Of a DNA stretch of 64,000 nt, positions 13,099 through 26,893 are shown one piece after another. Source of the DNA: an uncultured bacterium (GTDB lineage Bacteria; Verrucomicrobiota; Lentisphaeria; Victivallales; UBA1829); assembly GCA_902778895.1 (NCBI GenBank), contig CACYZF010000003.1, positions 162,410 to 226,409 of the forward strand. Direction: 5' to 3'. Every line of letters begins with the position of its first letter. Positions within the stretch are counted from its first letter, which is position 1. A program made the position numbers and the translations under genes. The notes beneath the pieces are model-generated. The model searched no databases and had not been told where the DNA came from. It worked only from the letters and a program-made list of their open reading frames with translations.

Positions 13099-14961
13099 TC
13101 AGACCAGATTGTTTTGGATGTGTTCCCAGCGGGTCTCGTCGTTGCTGCCCATGTAGAACCGCAGCATTTCGTGGATGCCCTTGGTGTTTTCGAGGGTGAC
13201 TTTTTCGAGGCGGATGTCGGGCCCGATGAACTGCTTGAACTCCTTCGGCGAAATCTCGCCGAGACCTTTGAAGCGGGTGATCTCGGCGGACTTGCCGAGT
13301 TCCTTCGCGCGCTCGTCGCGCTCCTGTTCGGAGTAGCAGTAGAACGTCGTTTCCTTGTTGCGAACGCGGAAAAGCGGCGTTTCGAAGATGTAGAGGTGGC
13401 CGGAGATCACGAGCGATTCGAAGTACTGGAGAAAGAACGTGAGCAGGAGATTGCGGATGTGCAGGCCGTCAACGTCGGCGTCGGTCGCGATCACAACTTT
13501 GGCGTAGTTCAGGTTCTCCACGTCCTCTTCGATCCCGAGCGTGCGCATGATGTAGAACAGTTCTTCGTTGGAGTAAATCGCGTCGAGCTTCTTTCCGAAA
13601 CAGTTGAACGGCTTGCCGCGGAGCGCGAAGACCGCCTGGTAGTTCGGGTCGCGGCTGGTCACGAGCGAGGAGCCTGCGGAATCGCCCTCGGTAAGGAAGA
13701 TCATGGTCTCCTCGGCGAATTTCGAGCGGTCGCCGAAATGGTGGCGGCAGTCCTTGAGCTTGTTGTTCCGCAGGGAAATGCGCTTCGAGATGGCGGCGCC
13801 CTTCTTCTGGACCTTCTGGATCTCGCGGCGGACCTGCTCGTTCTTCTGGATCTTTTCGAGGAGGAGGTTGGCCTCGTCGGGGTGCTTCAGGAGGCTGTCG
13901 ATCACGGCCTGCTTCACGGTGCCCTCGATCCAGCCGCGCACGTCGGTGTTGCCGAGCTTGTTCTTGGTCTGGGACTCGAACAGCGGTTCCTGGATCTTCA
14001 CGGCGATGGTGCCGAGGATGCCGTCGCGGATGTCCTTCGGGTCAAAGTTTTTGTTGAAATGCTCGTTGATGGCGCGCGTGATGCCGCCCTTGAACGCGGA
14101 AAGATGCGTACCGCCGTCGCTCGTGTACTGGCCGTTCACGAACGAGAAATAGCGTTCGCCGGTGTCGGCCGTGTGGCAGAACGCGAATTCGAGCGTGGAA
14201 TCCTTGTAGTGGACGGGCTGGTAGAGCGACGCGCCCTCGTCGAGCTTGGAACGCACGAGATCCAGCAGGCCGTTCTTCGAATAATACCGCTGGCCGTTCA
14301 GATAGAGCGAAAGTCCGCTGTTCAGATATGCGTACATCCAGAGGCGGTTTTCCACCTCGGACGGACGGATTTCGTAGTTCGGGAAGAGTTTCGGATCGGG
14401 CGTGAAGCGGATGCGCGTGCCGGAATGCTCCGTGCCGGGATCGAGGTATTCCTCGTGGTCGAGGATGCCCTCGCGGAAGACCGCGGTGCGGCATTTGCCG
14501 TCACGCCAGGACGTAACCTCGAACTGCGAGGAAAGCGCGTTCACGGCCTTCGTGCCGACGCCGTTCATGCCGACGGAGAACACGTAGCCGTCCTTGTTGA
14601 ACTTGCCGCCCGTGTTGATCTTCGAAACGCAGTCCACGAGCTTGCCCAGGGGGATGCCGCGTCCGTAGTCGCGCACGGTGAAGGAACCGTGGTCGGAGGC
14701 GATGTCGATGCGCCGCCCGAAGCCCATGATGTATTCGTCGACGGCGTTGTCCACGACTTCCTTGAACATCACGTAGATGCCGTCGTCGGGGTGCGAACCG
14801 TCGCCCATGCGGCCGATGTACATGCCGGGGCGCTGCCGGATGTGGGCGAGCGCGTCGAGGGTCTGGATGCTGTCGTCGTTATATTTTGAACGGGCGGCGT
14901 TCTGATCCGCCTGTTTCATCAGGTCGTCCTGTATGATGTCGATGTCATTGTCCGGTGTCAT
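13099..14961 (-). CDS. parE: Type IIA topoisomerase B subunit (ParE type)
   Basis: HIRQRPGMYIG, EVVDNAVDE, VRDYGRGIP, GMNGVGTKAVNALS, FLTEGDSA, IATDADVDGLHI, RFKGLGEI; 620 aa. Confidence 0.88.
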   Translation of the reverse strand: MTPDNDIDIIQDDLMKQADQNAARSKYNDDSIQTLDALAHIRQRPGMYIGRMGDGSHPDDGIYVMFKEVVDNAVDEYIMGFGRRIDIASDHGSFTVRDYGRGIPLGKLVDCVSKINTGGKFNKDGYVFSVGMNGVGTKAVNALSSQFEVTSWRDGKCRTAVFREGILDHEEYLDPGTEHSGTRIRFTPDPKLFPNYEIRPSEVENRLWMYAYLNSGLSLYLNGQRYYSKNGLLDLVRSKLDEGASLYQPVHYKDSTLEFAFCHTADTGERYFSFVNGQYTSDGGTHLSAFKGGITRAINEHFNKNFDPKDIRDGILGTIAVKIQEPLFESQTKNKLGNTDVRGWIEGTVKQAVIDSLLKHPDEANLLLEKIQKNEQVRREIQKVQKKGAAISKRISLRNNKLKDCRHHFGDRSKFAEETMIFLTEGDSAGSSLVTSRDPNYQAVFALRGKPFNCFGKKLDAIYSNEELFYIMRTLGIEEDVENLNYAKVVIATDADVDGLHIRNLLLTFFLQYFESLVISGHLYIFETPLFRVRNKETTFYCYSEQERDERAKELGKSAEITRFKGLGEISPKEFKQFIGPDIRLEKVTLENTKGIHEMLRFYMGSNDETRWEHIQNNLV

Positions 14962-15295: not shown

Positions 15296-16570
15296 TCAGA
15301 GGACGGGAGTCGGGGTGGCTCCGGGGTTCTTCGTGGCCTTCGTGTCGACTTTGGCGGGCGTGAAATCGTAGACTTTCACGCTGCTCTTGGCGCGTTCGGC
15401 CTTGAGCATGGCCTGGATCTCTTCGGAGACGGTCTTGTCGACGAGGAAATCATGTATCTCGCCTTTGACCTTGTCGAGCGGCATATAGCCCTTCGGATCC
15501 TGCTTCAGGAGCTTGATGATGTGGTAGCCGAACTGCGAGTGGACGGGCTTCGTGAACTCGCCGGGCTTGGCGAGCTTGAACGCCGCAGCGGCGAAATCCG
15601 GGTCGAGCATGCCGGACTGGTCCAGCAGCATGCCATCCTTGTCGAACGGCGGGAGTTTGCCGTTGTCGCGCTTGCCGGAGGGGCAGTTGCTCTTTTCCTG
15701 CGCGAGCTTGTCGAAGCTGGCGGGATCTTTCACGAGCGCGGCGTAGATATCGTCGATCTGTTCCTTCGCGAGCTTGTCAGCCTTGGTCTTGATCTCCTTC
15801 TCCTCCTTGGAGTCGAGAGCGGAGACGGGTTCGCACTGGATCAGGATATGCGCGACCGTGATGCTCTCCGGAACGGCGAACTTCTGCTGGTTTTCGCGGT
15901 AGAACTTCTCGACGGAGTCGTCGTTGACTGCCTTTTCGGCCTTCTCAATGAAGTTTTTCTCCTCGTAGGCGGCGATGGCGGCGTTGCCCTGGATGTCGTC
16001 CTCCTTCGCGATCTCGTCACGATAGGCTTCGAGCGAAAGGCCGCGTTCCTTGAGCTGGGCCTTCACGGCGTCGACCTGCTCGGCGGGGAGCTTCTTGATG
16101 GAAGCGTCGAAATGGGTCTTCACGAGCTCCTCGGAGGGAATGAATCCGTCTTCCTTCGCCTTCTGCTTCAGGATCGCGGTGTCGATCTTCTGTTCGACGT
16201 ACTGCTGCATGGCGGTGCGCAGATAGGATTCGGGCGTCAGGGCGAGGACCTGCTGGGACACCTTCTTCGAGAGGAGCAGATCCACGATCTCCTTCTTCGT
16301 GATCTTCGTGCCGTTGACCTCGGCAACCACGTCGGGCAGGAAGGAAAGCGCCTTCGTCACTTCCTCCTCGGACGCGGGCTGGGACAGGAGCGCACGGCGG
16401 ATGGCGGCTTCGGCGGCCGCGTCGCCGTCAGCAGCGGTCTTCGGCGCGGCGACGTCCAGCCCCAAGTCGGGAGTCCCCCTCAGGGAAAGCGTCGACGGGC
16501 TGCTCTGGGCGGCGACGGAAAACGATACGGCACATGCCGCAAAAAAGACAAACATGGTTTTGCAGTTCAT
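15296..16570 (-). CDS. Exported parvulin-type peptidyl-prolyl isomerase (SurA/PrsA-like)
   Basis: Signal peptide; SurA-N-like VAEVNGTKIT; rotamase motifs VAHILI, FDKLAQEKSNCPSG, FAAAAFKL, PVHSQFGYHIIK. Confidence 0.9.
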   Translation of the reverse strand: MNCKTMFVFFAACAVSFSVAAQSSPSTLSLRGTPDLGLDVAAPKTAADGDAAAEAAIRRALLSQPASEEEVTKALSFLPDVVAEVNGTKITKKEIVDLLLSKKVSQQVLALTPESYLRTAMQQYVEQKIDTAILKQKAKEDGFIPSEELVKTHFDASIKKLPAEQVDAVKAQLKERGLSLEAYRDEIAKEDDIQGNAAIAAYEEKNFIEKAEKAVNDDSVEKFYRENQQKFAVPESITVAHILIQCEPVSALDSKEEKEIKTKADKLAKEQIDDIYAALVKDPASFDKLAQEKSNCPSGKRDNGKLPPFDKDGMLLDQSGMLDPDFAAAAFKLAKPGEFTKPVHSQFGYHIIKLLKQDPKGYMPLDKVKGEIHDFLVDKTVSEEIQAMLKAERAKSSVKVYDFTPAKVDTKATKNPGATPTPVL

Positions 16571-16597: not shown

Positions 16598-17338
16598 TTA
16601 TGGATTTGCGGGCCGCTGACGCAGCCAAGCTTCGAACCCGGCGATCTGAGCGGCGTCCGCATTCATTTCCAGAAGCGCGGTCAATGTGGCGGCTTCGTTC
16701 TTCCGGCCCGCCGCGGCGGCGTCCATGGCGTCCTGCATCAGCGCGACGCAGGCGTCGGCCCGTTCCACAGCGGCGCGCACCTCGGCTTCCTTGGTCACCG
16801 TGGCTGCATACGACGGAAGTTTCGGGAAGTATTTGGCGTTTGTCCTGGCAAACGCGCTCAAATCGGCAGCTGCGGCACGGATGTCGTCGGAAAAATGCGC
16901 CGCGAGCATTTTCTCGTTCAGACGCTGCGCCTCGAGCAGAAGATCGACCTGGGTCTTCGCCTCGGTCACGGAGGTGCTGACGTCGCCGTATTTGAGGCAG
17001 TAGGCGTCGAGTTCGGCGGAAGCGCCGGCGATGTCGCCCGCGTCAAGCTTGGCCTTCGCCGACGCGATCACGGTGTTCGCCCGGACAATGTGCTCGAAAT
17101 CGGAAAGGAACATGTTCGTGGGATCGATGCTGCGATAGGTGTCGATGTTTTTGAGCGCGGCTTCGTTGTTCCTGCGGTCCAGATTCTCGAATATCTCCAG
17201 CAGGGCGCGGGAACGCTCCATGGGCGCGGGCGGAGCGGATTTAGAGCAAGACACAAGGCATGAGAGCGCGATTCCGGCCAGGACGGCCGTGAACAGCGCG
17301 TAACGGACAGAGCAATGCGCGGAGGTTGTTGTTTTCAT
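16598..17338 (-). CDS. Hypothetical helical lipoprotein
   Basis: Hydrophobic N-terminus with lipobox LVSC; Ala-rich helical body; 27 bp upstream of the PPIase gene. Confidence 0.65.
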   Translation of the reverse strand: MKTTTSAHCSVRYALFTAVLAGIALSCLVSCSKSAPPAPMERSRALLEIFENLDRRNNEAALKNIDTYRSIDPTNMFLSDFEHIVRANTVIASAKAKLDAGDIAGASAELDAYCLKYGDVSTSVTEAKTQVDLLLEAQRLNEKMLAAHFSDDIRAAAADLSAFARTNAKYFPKLPSYAATVTKEAEVRAAVERADACVALMQDAMDAAAAGRKNEAATLTALLEMNADAAQIAGFEAWLRQRPANP

Positions 17339-17533: not shown

Positions 17534-18904
17534 TCAGCCTCTGCGGGAACGGAGACGTCCGCGCTGGAGGAAGCCCTCGTAGTTTTTCATCACCAGAAGC
17601 GATTCCATCTGGGAGAGCGTGTCAATGGTCACACCGACAATGATCAGCAGGCTGGTGCCGCCGAAGAACGACGCCACGGCGTACGGAATCTTCAGCCACA
17701 TCGTGAGGAGCATCGGGAAGACCGAGAGGCCGCACAGGAAGATCGCGCCGGCGAACGTGATGACGGTCATCAGGTCGTCGAGGTAATCGCATGTGGGCTT
17801 TCCGGGCCGGATGCCGGGCACGTAAGCACCTTCCTTCTTCAGATTGTCAGCGATCTGCACCGGGTTGAACATGTTCGAGACCCAGAAGTAGGAGAACGCG
17901 ATGATCAGCGCGCCGTACATCAGCATGTAGGAATAGGATCCGTGCGTGAAGTACTGCTGGAGCGCGGCGACCTTTGCGCTCGGGATGAGACGCAGGAACA
18001 TCGGCGGGAACATCAGGATCGCGCCGGCGAAGATGATGGGCATGACGCCGGGGAAGTTGACCTTGAGCGGCATGTAGGTGCTGCCGCCCGCGACCTTGTT
18101 TCCGACTGTCTTGCGCGCCATCTGGATCGGCACCTTGCGGACGCCCTGGCAGAGGATAATCGTGAGGGCGGTCACAACGGCGAAGATGATGATCAGGATG
18201 AGCACGTGCGGGAGACGGAACCGGCTGTCGCCGGAACCGCCGCTCTGGTACATGTCGTACAGCTGGGCGATCGCCTTCGGGAGACGGTCGATGATACCGA
18301 TCGTGATGATGATCGAAACGCCGTTTCCGATGCCTTTGTCCGTGATCTTTTCACCGAGCCACATCAGGATCATCGTGCCGCAGGTCAGGATGATGACCGA
18401 GAAGAACACGAACGCGGAGAGGTTGCCGCTGACGAGCGGCTGGCCGGGGAGTGCCGAGGGCAGGCCGAGGCGTTCCGGATGTGTCATGGCGATCGCGGTC
18501 ATGGCGCCCTGAATGACGCAGATGACGATCGTGAGGTAGCGGGTGTACTGGTTGATCTTGTTCATCCCGGCCTCGCCTTCGCGTTTGAGACGTTCAAGCG
18601 CGGGGAGGACAGGGACCAGGAGCTGCATGATGATGGAGGCGGAGATGTAGGGCATGATGCCGAGCGCTCCGACGGCGAACTGCTGGAGAGCGCCGCCGCT
18701 GAAGAGGTCGATCATGCCCAGGAATCCGCCGGCACCGGCAGTATCCTGGGAGAGCTTGTCGAAATAAGCCTTGAGGTTGTGCGTATTGACACCGGGGCAC
18801 GGGATGTTGGCCGCGATCCGGCAGACGATGATGACCGCTGCGGAAAAAAGGATCTTATTGCGGAGATCCTTGATTTTGAAAGCGTTGATAAATGCTTTGA
18901 ACAT
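17534..18904 (-). CDS. secY: Preprotein translocase subunit SecY
   Basis: DLRNKILF, LFSGGAL, ALGIMPYISASIIMQL, WLGEKITDKGIGNGVSIII, GGTSLLIIVGV. Confidence 0.98.
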   Translation of the reverse strand: MFKAFINAFKIKDLRNKILFSAAVIIVCRIAANIPCPGVNTHNLKAYFDKLSQDTAGAGGFLGMIDLFSGGALQQFAVGALGIMPYISASIIMQLLVPVLPALERLKREGEAGMNKINQYTRYLTIVICVIQGAMTAIAMTHPERLGLPSALPGQPLVSGNLSAFVFFSVIILTCGTMILMWLGEKITDKGIGNGVSIIITIGIIDRLPKAIAQLYDMYQSGGSGDSRFRLPHVLILIIIFAVVTALTIILCQGVRKVPIQMARKTVGNKVAGGSTYMPLKVNFPGVMPIIFAGAILMFPPMFLRLIPSAKVAALQQYFTHGSYSYMLMYGALIIAFSYFWVSNMFNPVQIADNLKKEGAYVPGIRPGKPTCDYLDDLMTVITFAGAIFLCGLSVFPMLLTMWLKIPYAVASFFGGTSLLIIVGVTIDTLSQMESLLVMKNYEGFLQRGRLRSRRG

Positions 18905-18938
18905 GTTGCCTCAATTTCCGGCGGAGACGCCGCAAGGG

Positions 18939-19388
18939 TTATTCGATGACTTCGACAGAGCCGCCGGCGGCTTCGATCTTGGCCTTGGCGGAGGCGGAGA
19001 ACTTCTGCGCCTTGACCTTGAGGGCCTTGTTGACATCGCCGGTGCCGAGGACCTTCAGCGGAGCCTTGTTCTTGGCGACAAGACCGGCCTTGAGGAGGAC
19101 CTCTTCGTTGATCTCGGTGCCCGCTTCGAACACTTCGTTGAGGGTGCCGACATTGACGACGTTGAAGACTTCCTTCACGCCATGCATCTTGAAGCCGCGC
19201 TTCGGGATGCGGCGGAAGCTCGGGGTCTGACCGCCTTCAAAGTGGTGACGGATGGCGGCGCCGCTGCGCGAACGCTGGCCTTTTTCACCGCGGCCGCAGG
19301 TTCCGCCCCAACCGGAGCCGTCGCCACGGCCGACTCTGTGTCTGTTCTTGCGGGAGCCGGGAGTCGTTTCGAGACTATGCAGATTCAT
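18939..19388 (-). CDS. rplO: 50S ribosomal protein L15
   Basis: RVGRGDGSGWGGTCGRGEKGQRSRSG, FEGGQTP. Confidence 0.98.
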   Translation of the reverse strand: MNLHSLETTPGSRKNRHRVGRGDGSGWGGTCGRGEKGQRSRSGAAIRHHFEGGQTPSFRRIPKRGFKMHGVKEVFNVVNVGTLNEVFEAGTEINEEVLLKAGLVAKNKAPLKVLGTGDVNKALKVKAQKFSASAKAKIEAAGGSVEVIE

Positions 19389-19403
19389 GATGAACTCCTT
19401 CTC

Positions 19404-19916
19404 TTATTTCTTGCCGAGTTTCTCAAGGACCTGGTCCTTGGTCTTCAGCAGCTCGATGGCGCGGAACGTCGCCTTGACGACGTTGGCCGGGTTGCTGGAA
19501 CCGAGGGACTTGGCGAGGACGTCGACGACGCCGCCGAGGTTGAGGACGGGGCGCATGGCGCCGCCGGCGATCAAACCGGTACCGGGGGAGGCCGGACGCA
19601 GGAGGACCTTGGAGCCGCGGAATTTGGCGGTCACGGTGTGGGGGATCGTGTGCCCGGAGAGGGGCATGACGATCATGTTCTTGCGGGCAGCTTCGCCGCC
19701 CTTGCGGATGGCGTCGGAGACTTCGTTGGCCTTGCCGTAGCCGAAGCCGACTTTGCCCTTGTGGTCGCCGACGACGACGAGCGCGCCGAAGGAGAAGTTA
19801 CGGCCGCCTTTGACGACCTTGGAGCAGCGATTGATGCTGATGACGACTTCTTCAGTGTCGGACTGCTCGCGTTCCTCTTTGGCCGGAGCGTCTTTTCTGG
19901 ATTTGTCAAAACTCAT
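19404..19916 (-). CDS. rpsE: 30S ribosomal protein S5
   Basis: [36 protein letters not shown]. Confidence 0.98.
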
Positions 19917-19930
19917 AGTGATGATACCTC

Positions 19931-20290
19931 TTAGAATTGGAGGCCGGCCTTGCGGGCGGCGTCGGCAAGAGCTTTGATTCTGCCGTGATACTGGAATCCG
20001 CTGCGATCGAAGACGACCTTGGAGACGCCTGCGGCGATGGCCTTTTCAGCGGCGAGCTTGCCGAGAGCGGCGGCGGCTTCGACGTTGCGCTTGAGGTTCA
20101 GGGCCTTGAACTCGGGAGAGAGCGTGGAGCTGGAGGCAAGCGTGACACCGGCGTCGTCGTCGATGAACTGGCAGTACATGTTGTTCGCAGTGAGACTGAC
20201 GCAGAAGCGGGGGACGGAGGCCGTCCCGGCGACTTTTTTGCGGAGACGCACATGGCGAAGCTGTCTTCTGACTTGGGAATTGCGAGTCAT
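19931..20290 (-). CDS. rplR: 50S ribosomal protein L18
   Basis: [40 protein letters not shown]. Confidence 0.97.
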
Positions 20291-20310
20291 TCTTTAATTC
20301 CTTTCACCCG

Positions 20311-20847
20311 TTATGCGTTCTTCTTGCCGGGCTTGATCGTGACCTGTTCGTCCGAGTAACGGACACCCTTGCCCTTGTAGGGTTCGGGCTTGCGGAAGGC
20401 GCGGATCGTGGAGGCGACGGCGCCGACGAGCTGCTTGTCGTATCCCTCGATGGAGATCTTGTAGCCGTCGGTGACGGTGAGCTTGATGCCTTCGGGCACG
20501 ATGTAGTTGATGTCGTGGGAGAAGCCGAGCTTGAGCGTGAGCTTGTTGCCGGCGAGGTCGGCACGGAAGCCGACGCCGACGATCTCGAGGCCCTTGGAGT
20601 AGCCCTTGGACACGCCGATGACGGCGTTGTTGATGAGGGCGCGGTTCAGGCCGTGCATCGCTTTGGCGTTGTCGAGGTCGGTGTCGCGGCTCAGGATGAT
20701 CTGGTCGCCTTCGACCTTGACGGTGATGTGCTTCTGGGTTGGGATGGTGAGCGTACCGAGCTTACCGGTGATAACGGTCGCGCCGTCTTCGACTTTGGCG
20801 GTGACGCCAGCGGGGATGGCAACCGGTTTTTTACCAATACGAGACAT
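20311..20847 (-). CDS. rplF: 50S ribosomal protein L6
   Basis: MSRIGKKPVAIP, RKPEPYKGKGVRY. Confidence 0.98.
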   Translation of the reverse strand: MSRIGKKPVAIPAGVTAKVEDGATVITGKLGTLTIPTQKHITVKVEGDQIILSRDTDLDNAKAMHGLNRALINNAVIGVSKGYSKGLEIVGVGFRADLAGNKLTLKLGFSHDINYIVPEGIKLTVTDGYKISIEGYDKQLVGAVASTIRAFRKPEPYKGKGVRYSDEQVTIKPGKKNA

Positions 20848-20862
20848 GATGACTCCTTGAAG

Positions 20863-21255
20863 TTACCAGACGTAGCAGAGGATCTCTCCGCCCACGTTTT
20901 GTTTCTCGGCGTCTTTGCCGCTCAGTACACCTCTCGAGGTGGAGAGGATGGCGATACCCATTCCGTCCTTGACCTTCGGAATGTTCTGGCTGCCGCAGTA
21001 CAGTCTGCACGACGGCTTGGAAACACGCTGGAGGTTTTCGATGACGGGCTGGCGTTTGAAGTATTTCATGGTGATCTTCAGAACCTTCTTCGTTTCACCC
21101 TCGACGACATAGTCGGCGATGTAGCCTTCCTGCTTGAGGACTTCCGCGATGGCGGTCTTCATGATGGAAGAAGGCATGGAAACGACCTTCTGCATGGACA
21201 TGCAGCCGTTGCGAAGGCGCGTCAGCATATCTGAAATCGGATCCTGCATACTCAT
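20863..21255 (-). CDS. rpsH: 30S ribosomal protein S8
   Basis: DPISDMLTRLRN, VSKPSCRLY, ILSTSRGV, GGEILCYVW. Confidence 0.98.
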   Translation of the reverse strand: MSMQDPISDMLTRLRNGCMSMQKVVSMPSSIMKTAIAEVLKQEGYIADYVVEGETKKVLKITMKYFKRQPVIENLQRVSKPSCRLYCGSQNIPKVKDGMGIAILSTSRGVLSGKDAEKQNVGGEILCYVW

Positions 21256-21273
21256 TGTAGGGATTCCTTTCTG

Positions 21274-21459
21274 TTACCAACTGGCCTTAATCACGCCCGG
21301 AATCTGGCCGGTGGAGGCCATTTCACGGAAGCAGATACGGCAGAGTTTAAATTTGCGGATGACGGCGCGGGGACGACCGCAGGCGGCGCAACGCGTGTAG
21401 CTACGGACTTTGAATTTCCCGCCGCGTTTCTGTTTCGCAATCAGACTTTTCTTAGCCAT
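21274..21459 (-). CDS. rpsN: 30S ribosomal protein S14, zinc-binding (type Z) form
   Basis: 61 aa; [24 protein letters not shown] with four Cys. Confidence 0.97.
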
Positions 21460-21473
21460 TTCTTAACGTCTCC

Positions 21474-22010
21474 TTACTTGGCGAACGGGAAGTCCAGCAT
21501 GGTGAGAAGTTCCTTCGCCGCGGCGTCGGTCTTCGCGCTGGTCACGATCGTGATGTTCATTCCGAGCGGATATTTGATCTTGTCGAGGTCGATTTCGGTG
21601 AAGATCGAAACATCCGGGATGCCGAGGTTGTAGTTTCCGACGTGGTCGAAACCCTTCTTCGGAGCGCCGCGGAAGTCGCGGACGCGCGGGAAGGCGTTGT
21701 GGACCAGACGATCGAGGAACTGGTACATGCGGTCGCCGCGGAGGGTGACCATGAGACCGACGGACATGCCGGCGCGAAGCTTGAAGTTCGCAATGTTCTT
21801 TCTGGACTTGCAGACGACGGGGGCCTGGCCGGCGATGGCGGAGAGGTGGGTGCGGGCTTCGGAGAAAGCGTCCTTTTCCATCTTGGTGCCGATACCGGTG
21901 CTGATGACGATCTTCTTCAGCTTCGGAATCTCCATGACGTTCTTGAGGCCGAGCTTTTCCTGAAGAGCGGGACGGACCTGCTCATTGTAGTATTTTCTCA
22001 TATCGGGCAT
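21474..22010 (-). CDS. rplE: 50S ribosomal protein L5
   Basis: [42 protein letters not shown]. Confidence 0.98.
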
Positions 22011-22026
22011 TGTTCAGTTCCTCCAC

Positions 22027-22335
22027 TCACTCGGCCTTCTTCGCGCCTTCGTCGGCGGAAGCGATCTTCTTGACGTTGGAGACGTGCACGGAGACGGCGC
22101 GGTCGGCGAGGCCGCCGTTCGGATTCGCGGCGCTCTTGCGGACAGTGCGCTTCTTCGTGATGCGTTCACGGTCGCGGTCGGTGGGATTCTCGATTTCGAG
22201 GACGACGCGGTCTTTCTTCTTGAGGATGGCCACGACTTTGGCGGTTTTATCCTTCCAGCCGCCGCTGATGACCTGGACCTTGTCGTTCTTCTTGACGTGG
22301 TAGTGCTTCTGGCACTTGTTGAGTTCGTTATTCAT
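22027..22335 (-). CDS. rplX: 50S ribosomal protein L24
   Basis: [16 protein letters not shown]-like motif, VHVSNV; positioned after rplN. Confidence 0.93.
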
Positions 22336-22700
22336 CAGAGGACCTCCGGCGCCAGGGAAATGATTTTCATGAAGTTCTTGTCGCGAAGTTCACGGGCGAC
22401 CGGTCCGAAAATGCGGGTGCCTTTCGGATTCTTCTGGTCGTCGATGATCACGGCGGCGTTCTTGTCGAAGCGCAGATAGGATCCGTCGGAACGGCGGATG
22501 CGGGCGGCGGTGCGAACGACGACGGCCTTGACGACGTCGCCTTTCTTCACGGTACCGCCGGGGATGGCTTCCTTGACAGTGGCGGTGAAGATATCGCCGA
22601 TGGAGGCGATGGTCTTGCGCTGGCCGAGGACGGTGATGAGCACGATGCGCTTGGCGCCGGAATTGTCGGCGACTTCAAAACTGGATTGCATCTGAACCAT
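22335..22700 (-). CDS. rplN: 50S ribosomal protein L14
   Basis: [36 protein letters not shown]. Confidence 0.98.
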
Positions 22701-22715
22701 AGTTCAAGTCTCCTC

Positions 22716-23009
22716 TTATTCGCTGCGGCTGATGATTTTGACCAGGCGCCAGTGCTTGGTCTTGCTCAGGGGGCGGGTCTCCGCGATCATGACCTGATCG
22801 CCGACCTTCGCTTCGTTGTTCTCGTCATGAGCCGCATAACGGACGTGGCTCTTGACGACCTTCTTGTACCGGGGATGCGCGGAACGCGTCACGATCTCAA
22901 CGACGATCGTCTTGTTCTGGGCGTCGCTGATGACGTTTCCGACGCGCGTTTTCCGGTGGCCGCGCACGACGGCTGCGGCAGCGGTATCAGTCTTAATGGT
23001 TTCGTCCAT
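22716..23009 (-). CDS. rpsQ: 30S ribosomal protein S17
   Basis: KTIVVEI, HPRYKKVVK, AHDENN, ETRPLSKTKHWRL. Confidence 0.97.
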   Translation of the reverse strand: MDETIKTDTAAAAVVRGHRKTRVGNVISDAQNKTIVVEIVTRSAHPRYKKVVKSHVRYAAHDENNEAKVGDQVMIAETRPLSKTKHWRLVKIISRSE

Positions 23010-23021
23010 TTCAGGTATTCC

Positions 23022-23243
23022 TTATTTGCCGGCCGAAGCGCGTTTGTTGAGTTCGGTCATCACCCGGGCGAGGTTGCGGCGGGCGGTGCGGATTTTGGCC
23101 GGGCTTTCGAGCTGACCGGATTTGGCCTGGGCGCGGAGGAGGAACTTTTCCTTGCGGAGCGCACCGTCGCGAGCGACGAGTTCGTCCTGCGGAAGTTCGC
23201 GGATCTGCTGCATGGCCTTATTGACAGTTTTTTTGTTTTTCAT
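23022..23243 (-). CDS. rpmC: 50S ribosomal protein L29
   Basis: IRELPQDEL...KFLLR...GQLESPAKIRTARRNLARVMT; positioned between rplP and rpsQ. Confidence 0.93.
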   Translation of the reverse strand: MKNKKTVNKAMQQIRELPQDELVARDGALRKEKFLLRAQAKSGQLESPAKIRTARRNLARVMTELNKRASAGK

Positions 23244-23261
23244 GACAGGTCCTTCCTCACA

Positions 23262-23681
23262 TTAGACAGCCGGGATCCGGGAGACGAAGCGGCAGCGGAT
23301 CGGGAGCTTGGAAGCGGCGAGGCTCATGGCCTCCTTCGCAAGGGTCTCGGAGCAGCCGGATATCTCGAAGAGCATGCGGCCGGGCTGAACCGGGGCGACC
23401 CAGTATTCGACGTTGCCTTTGCCCTTACCCATACGGACTTCCAGGGGCTTCTTCGTGCAGGGCTTGTACGGGAACAGGCGGATCCACACCTGACCGCGGC
23501 GTTTCATGTGGCGGGTAATCGCGACACGGGCGGCTTCGATCTGGGCAGCGGTCAGGAAACCGCGCTCAAACGTCTGCAATCCGAAATCGCCGAAATCCAG
23601 TTTGTTGCAGCGTTGGGACAGCCCGGCGTTATTACCGCGCTGCACCTTTCTGTGCTTTACTCTTTTTGGCATTAACGGCAT
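23262..23681 (-). CDS. rplP: 50S ribosomal protein L16
   Basis: [38 protein letters not shown]. Confidence 0.98.
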
Positions 23682-24333
23682 TTTGCATTTCCTCCGTGAG
23701 TTCCTTGTGGCAGATCCAAACCTTCACGCCGATTTTGCCTGCGGTCGTGTTGGCCTCGGTGAATCCGTAATCGATGAAAGCCTTCAGGGTCTGAAGCGGC
23801 GTGCGCCCTTCCTTGTAGGTTTCGGTGCGGGCCAGTTCCGCGGCGCCGAGTCGGCCGGAGCACTGGATTTTAACGCCTTCGGCGCCGAGTTCCATGGCGG
23901 TCTGAATGGCCTTCTTCATGGCACGGCGAAAACCGATGCGGCGTTCGAGCTGGGCAGCCACGTTTTCAGCGACGAGCTGAGCGTTGGTCTCGGGCTGCTT
24001 GACCTCGATGACGTCGACGATGAGCTCCTGCCCTTTGTCGAGGAGCTTGCTCACTTCGTCGCGCAGTCTGTCGATCTCGGCGTCCTTGCCGCCCTTCTTG
24101 CCCAGGAGCACGCCCGGACGAGCGGCGAAGATGGTGGTGCGAACGCGGTTGAAATAGCGTTCGATCAGGATGTTGGAGATCGCAGCCTGATTGTAGTTTT
24201 TCTTGATGTAGGTGCGGACCTTGCGGTCTTCGTGGAGCCACGTCCCGAAGTTGTCCTTGCGGGCGAACCAACGGGAGCACCAATTCTTGTTCAGGGCAAG
24301 TCTGAGCCCGATCGGATTAATTTTTTGTCCCAC
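23632..24333 (-). CDS. rpsC: 30S ribosomal protein S3
   Basis: [45 protein letters not shown]. Confidence 0.98.
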
Positions 24334-24351: not shown

Positions 24352-24681
24352 TCAGTCGTCGGTAAGAACCACCGTGAAGTGGCTCATGCGTTTGCGGATT
24401 CTGCCCGCCATGCCGCGTGCCTTCGGACGGAAACGCTTCAGCATCGGACCGGGGTCCGCGACTGCGGTTTTGACCATCAGGGACGCTTCGTTCATTCCGC
24501 TTTCGGCTGCAGCCGCCTTGGCGCATTTGAGCGTCTTGGCGAACAGCTTGGCGGCTTTTCTCGGGGAAATTTCCGCGATCGCAAGCGCCTCGGCGTAGGG
24601 CTTTCCCTGGATGACCCGGGAGAAATCCATACCCTTGGACGGAGCAATGCGGACATACCTTGTTACTGCCCGAACTTCCAT
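24352..24681 (-). CDS. rplV: 50S ribosomal protein L22
   Basis: RYVRIAPSK, GPMLKRFRPKARG, SHFTVVL. Confidence 0.97.
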   Translation of the reverse strand: MEVRAVTRYVRIAPSKGMDFSRVIQGKPYAEALAIAEISPRKAAKLFAKTLKCAKAAAAESGMNEASLMVKTAVADPGPMLKRFRPKARGMAGRIRKRMSHFTVVLTDD

Positions 24682-24689
24682 GTTGTTCT

Positions 24690-24912
24690 CGCTTTGTTGT
24701 TATGGTTTTGGGTTGAAGATAGTGCGAACTGTATGTATTTGAGCATCCCGGACCCTGCGGCACAATGCACCGCAAGACCCGGAACGGGTTTCCAATGGAG
24801 CTGCCGTCCGCCGCGTCTGATACCGGGCATTTTCAGCTGGGCTGAGTGTCCCCGGGCAAAGATAGCTTAGAACAGCAAATTGGGCTGTCGCCGCGTTTTC
24901 TGCGGCAAACAG
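24690..24912 (-). promoter_or_regulatory. Candidate structured 5' leader RNA of the rplV operon
   Basis: About 230 nt of non-coding sequence between the predicted promoter and the rplV ATG, with four hand-folded hairpins, including a 13-bp stem at 24748-24782. Confidence 0.45.
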
Positions 24913-24919
24913 AGTTAAT

Positions 24920-24948
24920 AATATACTTTCTCATTCCATGATTTTCCA
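24920..24948 (-). promoter_or_regulatory. Putative promoter of the rplV-secY operon
   Basis: TGGAAA-N17-TATATT. Confidence 0.55.
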
Positions 24949-25031
24949 GTCCGTTTCCAAAAAAAATGCACTTTTTTTCGATTTTTTTTCGGTCCGGGAT
25001 GGAAAATGCGGAAAAATGCAAGATTTATACT

Positions 25032-26234
25032 TTATTTACCTTCTACCGTGCCGCCCCCGCGGAACAGCCGGTCGACCGCCTTGATAAAGCGCATCGTCCG
25101 CGTCATCCGCGGCGTGATCGCGCCTTTCGGACAGTGTTCCTGGCAGCAGAAACACCGGATGCAGTGCGGAAGATCGAAGGCGGGTTTGCCGCCGGAAAGC
25201 TTCAGGGATTTCGGAGGGCACATTTTCACGCAGACGCCGCAGCCGACGCATTTCGCCGGATCAAGGACCGGATTCACAACCATCAGTTTGTAAAGCGGCT
25301 TCTGCATCCATTTCGGAATGCCGACGCCGAGATGCATCTGCGCCATGTCCATGACGGGACGGTCCGGAAGCGCCAGCGGTTCGCAGACGGGCAGCGGATC
25401 GGGATTGTCGACCGTTTCCGTCGCGGGGAACAGCCCGCGCGCCTTCGCGCGTTTGATGATGTGCAATGTATCGGGATCAACGCCGAGAACCCGCGCCGCG
25501 ACCGCGTCAATCGCCAGAGCGTCGGTGCCGCCCGCGATGAAATGCCGGTCCGCCGGAGTCCCCGCGCCGGGGCCGTTGCCCTCCATGCAGGTGACGGCAT
25601 CGAGCAGATTGAATGCTGGCCGGACAACGAGATAAAGGTCGAGGAGCATATCGGCGAATTTGTCGTAGTCGCGTCCGACGGCGAGATGCCAGGCGAGCCG
25701 GTCGCCGCCGTTGACAAGGCCGAAAAGGTTTTTGACGCAGAAGGTCAGGGTCATCATGCCGTGCGTCTTGGCTTTAGCGAGGTCGGCGACGAAATCGTAT
25801 TCGCGGAACTCATTGGCGATTTCGAGATTGCGGAAGAAAACGGCGTCGAGCGGGGGTTGTTTGATATAGTTTTTGAAATTGGCGGACGCGACGCCGAGCG
25901 ATTTCAGTTCGTCGGCGATCCCCATGGCACGGAGGATCTGCGGCGTGGTCTGCACGGCGGGATTCTCCAGGATGGCCACGCACGACGCTCCGGCGTCCAG
26001 AAAGACTTTCGCCGTCTCGACGATGAACCGCGGATGTACGGCCTGCGGATCGTTTTCCTTGCGCCAGGCCAGCAGATTGGGTTTCAGCATCACGGATTTG
26101 CCGGAGACGCCGCCCGCCGCCTCGATCTGAGGTTGCAGGACGTGTTCGAGCGCGGGACGCAGCGCCTGCGGCGTGTAGTCGGCGCAGGGAGCGAACGCCA
26201 GCCGGATATTCTTATTCTTCCGTTCGGACGTCAT
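25032..26234 (-). CDS. DUF362 domain protein with a C-terminal 2x[4Fe-4S] ferredoxin
   Basis: GKSVMLKPNLL, AVHP, KAKTHGMMTLTFCVKNLFG, IAGGTDALAIDAV; CVGCGVCVKMCP and CIRCFCCQEHCP; start moved to MTSERK, which overlaps the upstream stop (ATGA). Confidence 0.85.
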   Translation of the reverse strand: MTSERKNKNIRLAFAPCADYTPQALRPALEHVLQPQIEAAGGVSGKSVMLKPNLLAWRKENDPQAVHPRFIVETAKVFLDAGASCVAILENPAVQTTPQILRAMGIADELKSLGVASANFKNYIKQPPLDAVFFRNLEIANEFREYDFVADLAKAKTHGMMTLTFCVKNLFGLVNGGDRLAWHLAVGRDYDKFADMLLDLYLVVRPAFNLLDAVTCMEGNGPGAGTPADRHFIAGGTDALAIDAVAARVLGVDPDTLHIIKRAKARGLFPATETVDNPDPLPVCEPLALPDRPVMDMAQMHLGVGIPKWMQKPLYKLMVVNPVLDPAKCVGCGVCVKMCPPKSLKLSGGKPAFDLPHCIRCFCCQEHCPKGAITPRMTRTMRFIKAVDRLFRGGGTVEGK

Positions 26235-26893
26235 TTGCTCTTCAGCCATTGAATCAGCTCCGTGATGTCCGCGATGAGGTCGGGATTCCGCGTACATTCG
26301 GGCTTGTGGCCGGGGATGAACGCGGCGATGCGGCCGCCCCACGGCGCAGCCGCCAGATATGCCTGCGGATAGGTGCGTCCGTTTATGGTCGTCTCCATGA
26401 GGATCGTGACCGGGGAGACCTGTTCGAGGTCGATGTACACTTCATCGGTCGGGAGCTCGATGCGGCGCAGGCGCGAGGCGAGCGGATGGCGCACCTTGGC
26501 GACCTCGACCGTGCAGGGCGCGACCGGATGCGTGGAGGGCGCGATTCCGTCCGGGTCCTCCGGGCGCACCCATCGGAGCCCGACCATGCCGCGCCACCAG
26601 TCCCAGCCCCAGAACGCCGCGCTGGACCCGTGAAGGAGCAGCAGGTCGCCGCCGCGTTCGCAGTAGGCGCGGACGGCTTGTTCCGCGCCGGAACCCGGCA
26701 TCGGCTGGCCGCAGGTGCCCGCGATCATGTGGAGCACGAGCAGGCCGCAATCCTTCACCCATTCACCGGATTCGAGCAGGGACCAGTCGTTTTCCGAGAA
26801 CACCGTTTCTCTGCGGAATTCCTCCGGCAGAAGCTCGAAGATATGCCTGCCAGGGTTTACGCCGTAATGGTCGTCGGCGAAAAAGTAGTTCAC
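26231..26893 (-). CDS. ThuA-like (class I glutamine amidotransferase-like fold) protein
   Basis: GGDLLLLHGSSAAF..WDWWRGMVG, STHP, HPLASRL, TDEVY, GGRIAAFIPGH; GTG start. Confidence 0.7.
   Translation of the reverse strand: MNYFFADDHYGVNPGRHIFELLPEEFRRETVFSENDWSLLESGEWVKDCGLLVLHMIAGTCGQPMPGSGAEQAVRAYCERGGDLLLLHGSSAAFWGWDWWRGMVGLRWVRPEDPDGIAPSTHPVAPCTVEVAKVRHPLASRLRRIELPTDEVYIDLEQVSPVTILMETTINGRTYPQAYLAAAPWGGRIAAFIPGHKPECTRNPDLIADITELIQWLKSK

Follow-up and report, generated by a model that had tools for sequence, protein, structure and literature searches.

A conserved structured leader upstream of a severed ribosomal protein operon in Lentisphaeria, apparently descended from the 5′ end of a lost gene

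Operon layout and the break between rpsS and rplV

The window analysed here, a 64,000-nucleotide stretch of DNA from an uncultured Lentisphaeria bacterium, holds a ribosomal protein operon of ~7 kb that runs from rplV (uL22), its first gene, to secY (Table 1). Downstream of rplV the gene order is rpsC, rplP, rpmC, rpsQ, rplN, a probable rplX, rplE, rpsN and rpsH, and the series continues with rplF, rplR, rpsE, rplO and secY, ending at 17534. The probable rplX is a 102-aa open reading frame (ORF) at the rplX position, with no Pfam match at 1e-5; the rpsN of this operon is short, and rplE starts at 22010 on the minus strand. All of the leader, promoter and operon features described here are on that strand. 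Upstream of rplV, across a 350-nt spacer, Pfam identifies a DUF362 gene standing in place of rpsS, just as an earlier note on this DNA had said.

Table 1. Features of the rplV operon and its upstream spacer in window coordinates
Feature	Coordinates	Strand	Basis
rplV (uL22), first gene of the operon	24681..24352	minus	Pfam L22 PF00237, 5.6e-29
Remainder of the operon, rpsC to secY	17534..24333	minus	Pfam matches
rpsH (S8)	21255..20863	minus	Pfam match; ILSTSRG motif in product
DUF362 plus 4Fe-4S gene, upstream of rplV	26342..25032	minus	Pfam
Promoter-like site P2: -35 TGGAAA (24948-24943), 17-nt spacer, -10 TATATT (24925-24920)	24920..24948	minus	promoter scan
A-tract/T-tract, UP-element-like, upstream of the -35	24959..24992	minus	relic of X N-terminal codons (KK..FF)
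Relic of the 5′ part of X, now non-coding	24801..25011	minus	global alignment to L015 X
Predicted 5′ UTR (leader), ~231 nt	24682..24913	minus	start inferred from the -10
P1, 5′-terminal hairpin GCCGC/GCGGC (CUGUUUGCCGC / GCGGCGACAG)	24885..24912	minus	consensus fold, pair counts
Irregular rod, helices P2-P3-P3b, carrying the core hairpin (P4/P5)	24792..24883	minus	RNAalifold consensus
Core hairpin: CCGGG, internal loop G-ACAC / AAAAUG, UCAGC-loop-GCUGA; candidate protein site	24823..24856	minus	fold, covariation
P6, 17-pair hairpin rich in G-U pairs, no U-tract after it	24746..24784	minus	fold, pair counts
Unstructured A/C-rich stretch, ending in Shine-Dalgarno-like GCGAGAA (24692-24686)	24682..24743	minus	composition

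The earlier note had also proposed that the S10 operon is broken between rpsS and rplV, and we find that it is. In the window genome rpsS lies on a separate contig (C5, 219814-220092) as the last gene of the series rpoC-rpsL-rpsG-fusA-rpsJ-rplC-rplD-rplW-rplB-rpsS, and both the rpsS and the rplV sites are mid-contig, far from contig ends. No S19 gene was found within 1.5 kb upstream of rplV at any of 30 loci from the genus, family and order, or upstream of rplV at 44 further loci spread over Lentisphaeria; taken together, 0 of 74 Lentisphaeria rplV loci have S19 within 1.5-2 kb upstream. The distance from rpsS to rplV in four complete or near-complete genomes of the order is 37 kb, 0.66 Mb, 0.70 Mb and 1.16 Mb, and in the other classes of the phylum rpsS is still upstream of rplV (19 of 20 genomes). 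Because rpsS is far from rplV across the class, near-closed genomes included, the split is a class trait rather than an assembly artefact, and genome comparison indicates that it is ancient and class-wide, not peculiar to the window genome.

The whole class has therefore cut the most conserved bacterial gene cluster at rpsS|rplV. With the operon cut there, the distal half needs its own promoter and, presumably, its own control. Feedback control of ribosomal proteins is textbook biology in E. coli, but most of the RNA operators that it employs there are confined to Gammaproteobacteria (PMC3616713).

Gene X, its probable relic and an embedded promoter-like site

In the class, the gene directly upstream of rplV is usually one that we call X, which is encoded on the same strand, is 230-370 aa long and ends 10-190 nt away. 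Its product begins with a K-rich N-terminus and a hydrophobic segment, continues as a long coiled coil and closes with a conserved C-terminus (..VVAVRPFVSAAVV..G....L.PGM..), and X is plausibly a gene for a secreted coiled-coil protein with a predicted signal peptide. It has no Pfam match, and public sources name it only ‘hypothetical’. An AlphaFold model (mean pLDDT 75) consists of a helix spanning residues 61-235 and a small C-terminal beta-barrel, which in this predicted structure is weakly like FlgT and the N-terminal barrel of F1-ATPase. Among the genomes sampled from other classes, about half (~10 of the 19 in which rpsS and rplV are linked) have 390-1130 nt separating the two genes, and the ORF in this interval shares the layout and C-terminal motif of X; one of these outside-class ORFs, that of L193, was detected by tblastn. 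The position of these X-like ORFs indicates that X was inserted into the S10 operon at the level of the phylum and that Lentisphaeria later cut the operon directly upstream of X.

The window genome, which is 94% complete, contains no X that tblastn could find. The spacer upstream of rplV is colinear with the first ~260 nt of X from L015, a species of the same genus that retains the gene and that served as our reference for the alignment (score 39, against 15.3 +/- 5.9 for shuffled sequences with a maximum of 38 in 300 shuffles). Specifically, GAAAAAAAGTGCATTTTTTTTGGAAACGGACTGGA in the spacer matches the X codons KKNRFFYEIDW of L015, the -10 of the spacer aligns with the X codons C-I-V (TGTATAGTA), the core hairpin described below aligns with the X codons DDIQSSAEDAR, and the last ~50 nt (AACCCAAAAC..AACAAAGCGAGAA) match the spacer between X and rplV, a tail that is common to L015 and L016 and is partly shared by other genera of the family. 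Judged from this alignment, the 350-nt spacer is a relic of X. What lies farther upstream differs from genome to genome: DUF362 in the window, an FtsW/RodA-like gene in L016 and, in L015, a gene read from sequence as GTP cyclohydrolase, followed by X. Because these upstream neighbours vary, the relic and rplV appear to travel together, and the comparison points to DUF362 as a recent neighbour and to X as the ancestral neighbour of rplV. Genus g28 has lost X independently and kept the promoter. It has a conserved leader of ~350 nt within a 400-700-nt spacer, with -10 elements 342-365 nt upstream of the ATG, and this leader retains a relic of the PGME codons from the X C-terminus.

On the minus strand of the spacer, a promoter scan returned P2 as the sole site of its kind upstream of rplV. 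This is the TGGAAA-N17-TATATT sequence that had been called a promoter from the window alone, and as a promoter-like site it holds up: a comparison of 13 species from the genus finds the two hexamers conserved and separated by a spacer of constant length whose sequence varies. The UP-element-like A/T tracts align to the KKNRFFYEIDW codons of L015 X and are conserved class-wide. In hexamer spacing and conservation the site thus has the properties of a predicted sigma-70 promoter with a UP-like element. Over the class, 64 of 74 loci match T[TG]GNNN-17-TA[TG][ATG][TG]T when anchored on the -10, for which we estimate a chance rate of ~0.14 per 1.5 kb. Nearly all of these matches are located at the beginning of X and have an A-tract and a T-tract on their upstream side; in many, A..(G)CTCTGTTTGC follows.

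Several observations bear on whether this motif is a promoter or a by-product of the protein that it encodes. In 32 X genes the motif occupies one codon phase, with a W codon in the -35 and with I-L or I-V written as ATA-TTA or ATA-GTA in the -10. The wobble T in these codons has little weight as an argument for a -10: the search pattern itself demanded a T there, which makes the reasoning partly circular. The strongest evidence is that the same architecture occurs in the non-coding DNA of three lineages that have no X, as TGGAAA-17-TATAKT in the focal clade, TTGAAA-16-TATATT in L016 and TTGATA-17-TATKTT in g28; this suggests that the DNA itself is under selection. Many X-bearing species have a second promoter-like site upstream of the X ATG, from which X is probably expressed. 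The motif is absent from X homologues outside the class, which fits a promoter that arose when the operon was cut. By this comparison the promoter predates the loss of X and is embedded in X coding sequence. Annotators of Lentisphaeria genomes should thus expect a promoter-like site to overlap the beginning of the ‘hypothetical protein’ that precedes rplV.

The steps that genome comparison makes visible are gene insertion, a cut, a promoter within codons and decay into a structured leader. In the sequence of events that we propose, the secreted coiled-coil gene X would have been inserted between rpsS and rplV in the phylum, and the S10 operon would then have been severed directly upstream of X in Lentisphaeria. 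An rRNA-like promoter (A/T tracts, TGGAnn-17-TATAKT) would have arisen within the signal-peptide codons of X. In the rumen genus, X would finally have decayed, leaving its 5′ end (the promoter and ~190 nt) together with the X-rplV spacer as the present leader. Taken jointly, the promoter, the leader and their origin in a relic of X are, in our judgement, likely to be correct.

A conserved leader RNA and its core hairpin

The 234 nt that separate the promoter-like site from the ATG fold to -81.6 kcal/mol (z = -2.9), and 1 of 200 shuffled sequences folds as well. Across the 13 species compared within the genus, mean pairwise diversity is 0.072 for the leader and 0.259 at the 4-fold sites of the DUF362 gene, such that the leader varies 3.6 times less than neutral-like sites. 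Within the spacer, diversity is 0.259 in the first 72 nt, 0.150 in the promoter region, 0.055 in the leader core and 0.045 in the A/C-rich tail; at the 4-fold sites of the r-protein genes it is 0.08-0.14. With 12 metagenome contigs added, the leader set comprises 22 distinct sequences, for which the RNAalifold consensus has 58 pairs and is 97.8% paired, whereas slid controls are 33-43% paired. Covariation among the relatives’ rplV upstream regions, a check named in the earlier note, revealed a conserved structure: 6 pairs carry two-sided changes, compared with 0.8 +/- 0.8 after shuffling (0 of 500 shuffles reached this value), at a sequence depth and divergence that are modest. These comparisons indicate that purifying selection acts on the leader as a conserved and structured RNA.

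The individual helices differ in how they vary. The 5′ strand of P1 contains the class-wide conserved CTCTGTTTGC, and this hairpin has undergone compensatory changes from C-G to A-U in L006 and, in its outer part, from U-A to C-G in L012/L106, where the inner stem is replaced. Helix P2 of the rod has one compensatory change from A-U to G-C (L118), helix P3 varies on one side with a few breaks, and in L016 other hairpins stand where P6 would be. Conservation of P1, P3 and P6 is confined to a single genus of close relatives, and some variants break pairs. Of the four hairpins that had been folded by hand, the consensus recovers GCCGC/GCGGC, CCGGG..UCAGC/GCUGA..CCCGG and the long stem. The fourth, GGACGG/CCGUUCC, is unsupported; GGACGGC pairs instead with GCUGUUC as P3, in the long rod that bears the core. 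The A/C-rich unstructured stretch described before the ATG is present as 62 nt of composition A28 C19 U10 G5, in which a weak UCGC/GCGA pairing is possible (24727-24724 with 24692-24689).

We also considered whether the spacer holds a signal of a more familiar type. A scan of the spacer found no terminator-like hairpin followed by a U-tract, which speaks against reading it as an attenuator, as the earlier note had allowed. A leader peptide is unlikely as well: the spacer ORFs are of 55 aa and 62 aa, L012 has no start codon, and single-nucleotide indels between species break these frames, ruling out a conserved small ORF. Searches of the window from 18 to 30 kb and of the loci of ten relatives gave no relevant Rfam match at E<=1. 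The leader lies between a promoter-like site and the rplV ATG and has a structure with covariation, as autoregulatory leaders do, and on these features it is a reasonable and fair candidate for an r-protein leader that is not in Rfam.

The most distinctive part of the leader is the core hairpin, which is 34 nt long. Its exact pattern occurs once in the window genome and, among 185,579 species genomes, only in the focal genus apart from one chance match; a scan of metagenomes gave mostly chance matches and 12 real ones, all from the focal clade. A covariance model of the core detects weaker copies in g26 (5 of 5 genomes), g8 and L015. Each copy is located within the 5′ portion of an intact X gene, ~150 nt past the embedded promoter, and rplV follows ~850 nt farther downstream. 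The consensus reads C(C/U)G(G/A)G-(G/A)ACAY-UCAG-[3 to 49 nt]-CUGA-A(A/G)AUG-C(C/U)C(G/A)G. In 14 distinct sequences 98.6% of cells are paired, and 3 of the 6 outer pairs show two-sided changes across three genera (10 cells, against 3.3 +/- 1.4 in shuffles; 0 of 500 shuffles). A switch from U-A to C-G has occurred within both g26 and g8, and it couples a synonymous change (ACU/ACC) with a non-synonymous one (CAG/CGG). The internal loop is invariant, whereas the terminal loop may be as short as 3 nt or as long as 49 nt. Judging from its distribution, the core hairpin is older than the leader and was already inside the X coding sequence of sister genera.

An invariant loop, covarying stems and a free distal end form the signature of a protein recognition site, for which this hairpin is a candidate; the pattern suggests specific recognition rather than bulk structure. 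In X-bearing species the conserved nucleotides also encode a plausible signal peptide, and thus conservation may partly be at the protein level.

Candidate ligands, alternatives and known systems

We predict that the leader is a regulatory RNA bound by a protein, a reading that we take seriously but would place slightly short of probable. Of the proteins listed in the earlier note as possible ligands for an r-protein leader here, S8 alone finds some support; the other part of that proposal, a leader that is conserved, structured, selected and outside Rfam, stands. The known S8 site is a helix interrupted by seven conserved loop nucleotides (PMC4176348). Its seven-nucleotide core comprises A595, A596, the 597-643 pair, 641, the invariant A642 and U644; A642 makes the one invariant base-specific contact, and the combination of 597-643 with 641 is replaceable (PMC4176348). 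In the E. coli S8 operator on mRNA the distal stem varies, the loop is invariant and two adenosines are present (PMC3616713), and S8 binds the spc mRNA at the rplE start (Cerretti 1988 and Merianos 2004, as summarised in PMC3616713 and PMC4176348). In several of its traits the core hairpin fits these published sites (PMC4176348, PMC3616713). In addition, rpsH is within the operon, and its S8 product has the STS motif (ILSTSRG).

To compare the two directly, 16S helix 21 from two species of the genus reads 5′ U-AAG-[UUUG..] and 3′ [..UGAA]-AACUG, and the leader hairpin reads 5′ A-CAY-[UCAG..] and 3′ [..CUGA]-AAAUG; in short form, AAG-U / A-AACUG is set against CAY-U / A-AAAUG. In E. coli numbering, positions 596, 598-640, 641, 642, 644 and 645 are identical. 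Position 597-643 is G-C in the rRNA, U-A in L016, L015, g26 and g8, and C.A in the focal clade, and position 595 of the hairpin is C, not A. The internal loop is 5+5 nt rather than 3+4, and the register of the outer stem, as set by covariation, leaves two extra 5′ bases. The likeness was spotted by eye after other sites had been considered, with the S8 site the only one compared in detail, and by our estimate chance alone would produce the bare S8 motif dozens of times in each genome. When the leader and core were aligned locally to the relatives’ rRNA operons and to the organism’s own 5S, no score rose above shuffles, and the core covariance model found no match in the same sequences; the 16S and 23S of the window genome are missing from its assembly. 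S8 as the specific ligand is a tentative proposal, and we consider it rather doubtful.

If the core hairpin is the operator for one of the proteins that the operon encodes, of which S8 is the best candidate, then an excess of S8 would reduce the operon’s expression. The distance from the hairpin down to the rplV start codon is 140 nt here and, in the X-bearing genera, ~850 nt. With 140 nt to the start codon, simple masking of the ribosome-binding site is unlikely, and the two distances make a direct translational operator hard to picture. A more likely route would be through leader folding, RNA decay, or Rho loading at the C-rich, G-poor stretch before rplV. That an rRNA-like promoter and an S8-responsive operator were both written into the codons of X and both outlived it is a speculative extension of this model, to which we give limited credence.

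A simpler view of the spacer deserves weight, although we hold it to be on the unlikely side: it may be a promoter followed by a decaying pseudogene, in which the hairpins are at most generic stabilisers of the mRNA (a 5′ stem-loop, or a target for RNase III or RNase E) with no ligand and no feedback. The region is demonstrably derived from X; P1, P3 and P6 are genus-specific and tolerate some mismatches, and L016 and g28 have different hairpins at equivalent places. P1, being at the predicted 5′ end, is placed as a protective stem-loop would be. RNase III cuts duplexes of about 17 pairs, the size of the P6 duplex. Against such generic structure are the leader’s diversity, 3.6 times below that of neutral sites, and a core whose stems covary and whose terminal loop spans 3-49 nt but whose internal loop is invariant in three genera.

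Alternatively, the hairpin could be recognised as we propose but by a partner other than S8, either another protein of the operon (L22, S17, L24, L5, L18 or other) or a non-ribosomal factor. The conservation pattern would fit such a partner equally well, the S8 match is imperfect, and neither alignment nor the covariance model uncovered an rRNA mimic. We nevertheless think this improbable: no likeness to another known site was found, in a comparison that was detailed for the S8 site only.

Less probable still is that GCUCUGUUUGC and the hairpin form an antitermination signal like that of rRNA operons, which would let RNA polymerase cross a long untranslated leader (~900 nt where X is present) without termination by Rho. 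This idea draws on the resemblance of promoter P2 to rRNA promoters and on GCUCUGUUUGC itself, a loosely boxA-like element that lies at about +5 to +15 and is conserved throughout the class, non-coding cases included; transcripts from promoter P2 would also be without the X start codon, and the C-rich, G-poor stretch resembles a Rho loading site. However, the rRNA boxA of this lineage is GUUCUUUGAAAA, and the leader sequence CUCUGUUUGC shares only the GYUCU part with it, matching poorly beyond. Moreover, in X-bearing species the element also encodes A-L-F-A of the signal peptide, and the hairpin is present in three genera only, whereas the need would be class-wide. Finally, although the genome is a metagenome assembly of 20 contigs, an assembly misjoin at the rplV upstream junction, raised earlier as a possible refutation, is refuted by the recurrence of the DUF362-leader-rplV junction in 13 species assemblies and 12 metagenome contigs and by the split in near-closed genomes of the order, and with no terminator in the leader-rplV interval an independent small-RNA gene fares no better; either is extremely improbable.

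The preferred reading, in which the leader is a regulatory RNA with a protein-binding core, yields a testable pair, the 34-nt hairpin as candidate operator and S8 as candidate ligand. If, in addition, the promoter and an S8-responsive operator both arose within X and outlived it, an r-protein leader would have been born, traceably, from coding sequence, and the 5′ end of a dead gene would now serve half of the S10/spc ribosomal genes as their dedicated regulatory leader. It would also mean that control of the ribosomal operon was rewired class-wide after the S10 operon was cut.

Several known systems help place this locus. The rRNA operon promoters of the family have an A-tract, a T-tract and TTGACA-16-TATATT-A, a layout like that of promoter P2; the likeness extends to the A/T tracts, the presence of a -35, a spacer of 16-17 nt and TATATT followed by A. 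They differ in the -35 itself, which is TGGAAA in P2 and TTGACA in the rRNA promoters, and, unlike the rRNA promoters, the P2-type promoter overlaps an ORF in most of the class. The candidate hairpin resembles the E. coli spc S8 operator in that it belongs to an operon encoding S8, consists of a helix with an invariant A-rich internal loop resembling 16S helix 21, has a distal stem and loop that vary freely, and uses a U-A pair followed by two adenosines to close its inner helix. In contrast to the E. coli operator, it is located in the 5′ leader, at 24856-24823, and does not overlap rplE; its loop is 5+5 rather than 3+4, with C at 595 and, in the focal clade, C.A at 597-643. The two have no sequence homology, and the hairpin is a predicted site only.

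The E. coli S10-operon leader acts by L4-mediated attenuation and translational control. Like that leader, the one described here has multiple hairpins, is a few hundred nucleotides long and precedes genes that belong to the E. coli S10 operon; unlike it, this leader has no terminator hairpin with a U-tract and no Rfam match, and rplD (L4) is on the other fragment, contig C5. The r-protein leader families of Rfam (L10, L13, L19, L20, L21, S15 and so on), none of which matches at E<=1, are the closest parallel in kind, together with the candidate leaders from comparative genomics, being narrowly distributed, structured 5′ UTRs with covariation. Such leader RNAs are typically clade-restricted (Fu et al. 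2013, PMC3616713). What sets the present leader apart from these families is that its ancestry leads back to the codons of an adjacent gene and that it is found in coding as well as non-coding contexts.

Gene X across the phylum and its upstream region

Gene X, the usual upstream neighbour of rplV in Lentisphaeria, belongs to an unannotated family that has no Pfam family. Its product consists of a signal peptide, a coiled coil of variable length and a small C-terminal beta-barrel bearing the motif ..VVDVRe..aGAii..GD... In about half of the phylum genomes sampled, at loci from other classes, the order is rpsS-X-rplV inside the S10 operon; these classes have both long forms (L193, L197, L202, L204, L206-L208) and short forms (L195, L203, L209) of X.

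Many X-bearing species carry an extra promoter-like site 5′ of the X ATG, ~60-120 nt upstream of the one embedded in the signal-peptide codons (L149, L150, L154-L156, L160, L172 and others). X and the ribosomal-protein operon may therefore be transcribed from tandem promoters.

Core hairpin variation and loss of X

At two loci of genus g8 (L226 and L018), inserts of 41 and 49 nt take the place of the core hairpin's terminal loop; they lie within the X coding sequence and leave the internal loop unchanged. Genus g28 (family f3; L157-L159, L161-L164) represents a second, independent loss of X. Its rplV upstream spacer, 400-700 nt long, retains the A/T tracts and TTGATA-17-TATKTT, contains conserved G+C-rich blocks (GGAACGUGCGAAAA; GUCGGGCCGU..ACGGCGGAAACGCUCCCGCCGG) and carries a relic of the X C-terminal codons, CCGGTATGAAGTCGG. 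This spacer is a candidate second leader family.

Operon content and the element after the -10

The rplV-to-secY operon of the window has rplO directly after rpsE, with no ORF for rpmD (L30) between them. The position after secY, usually that of adk or map, holds an ORF that had no Pfam match at 1e-5.

Features in the window
Feature	Position (strand)	Remark
(G)CTCTGTTTGC	24905-24914	conserved class-wide
rpsN	21274-21459 (-)	short form, 61 aa
rpsE/rplO	18939-19916	
246-aa ORF	16598-17338 (-)	immediately past secY
SurA-like PPIase	15296-16570	next after 246-aa ORF
gyrB-like gene	13099-14961	beyond SurA-like PPIase

The element (G)CTCTGTTTGC, 5-15 nt past the -10, is kept in coding and non-coding contexts alike. 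It is only loosely similar to boxA; the rRNA boxA of the family is GUUCUUUGAAAA.
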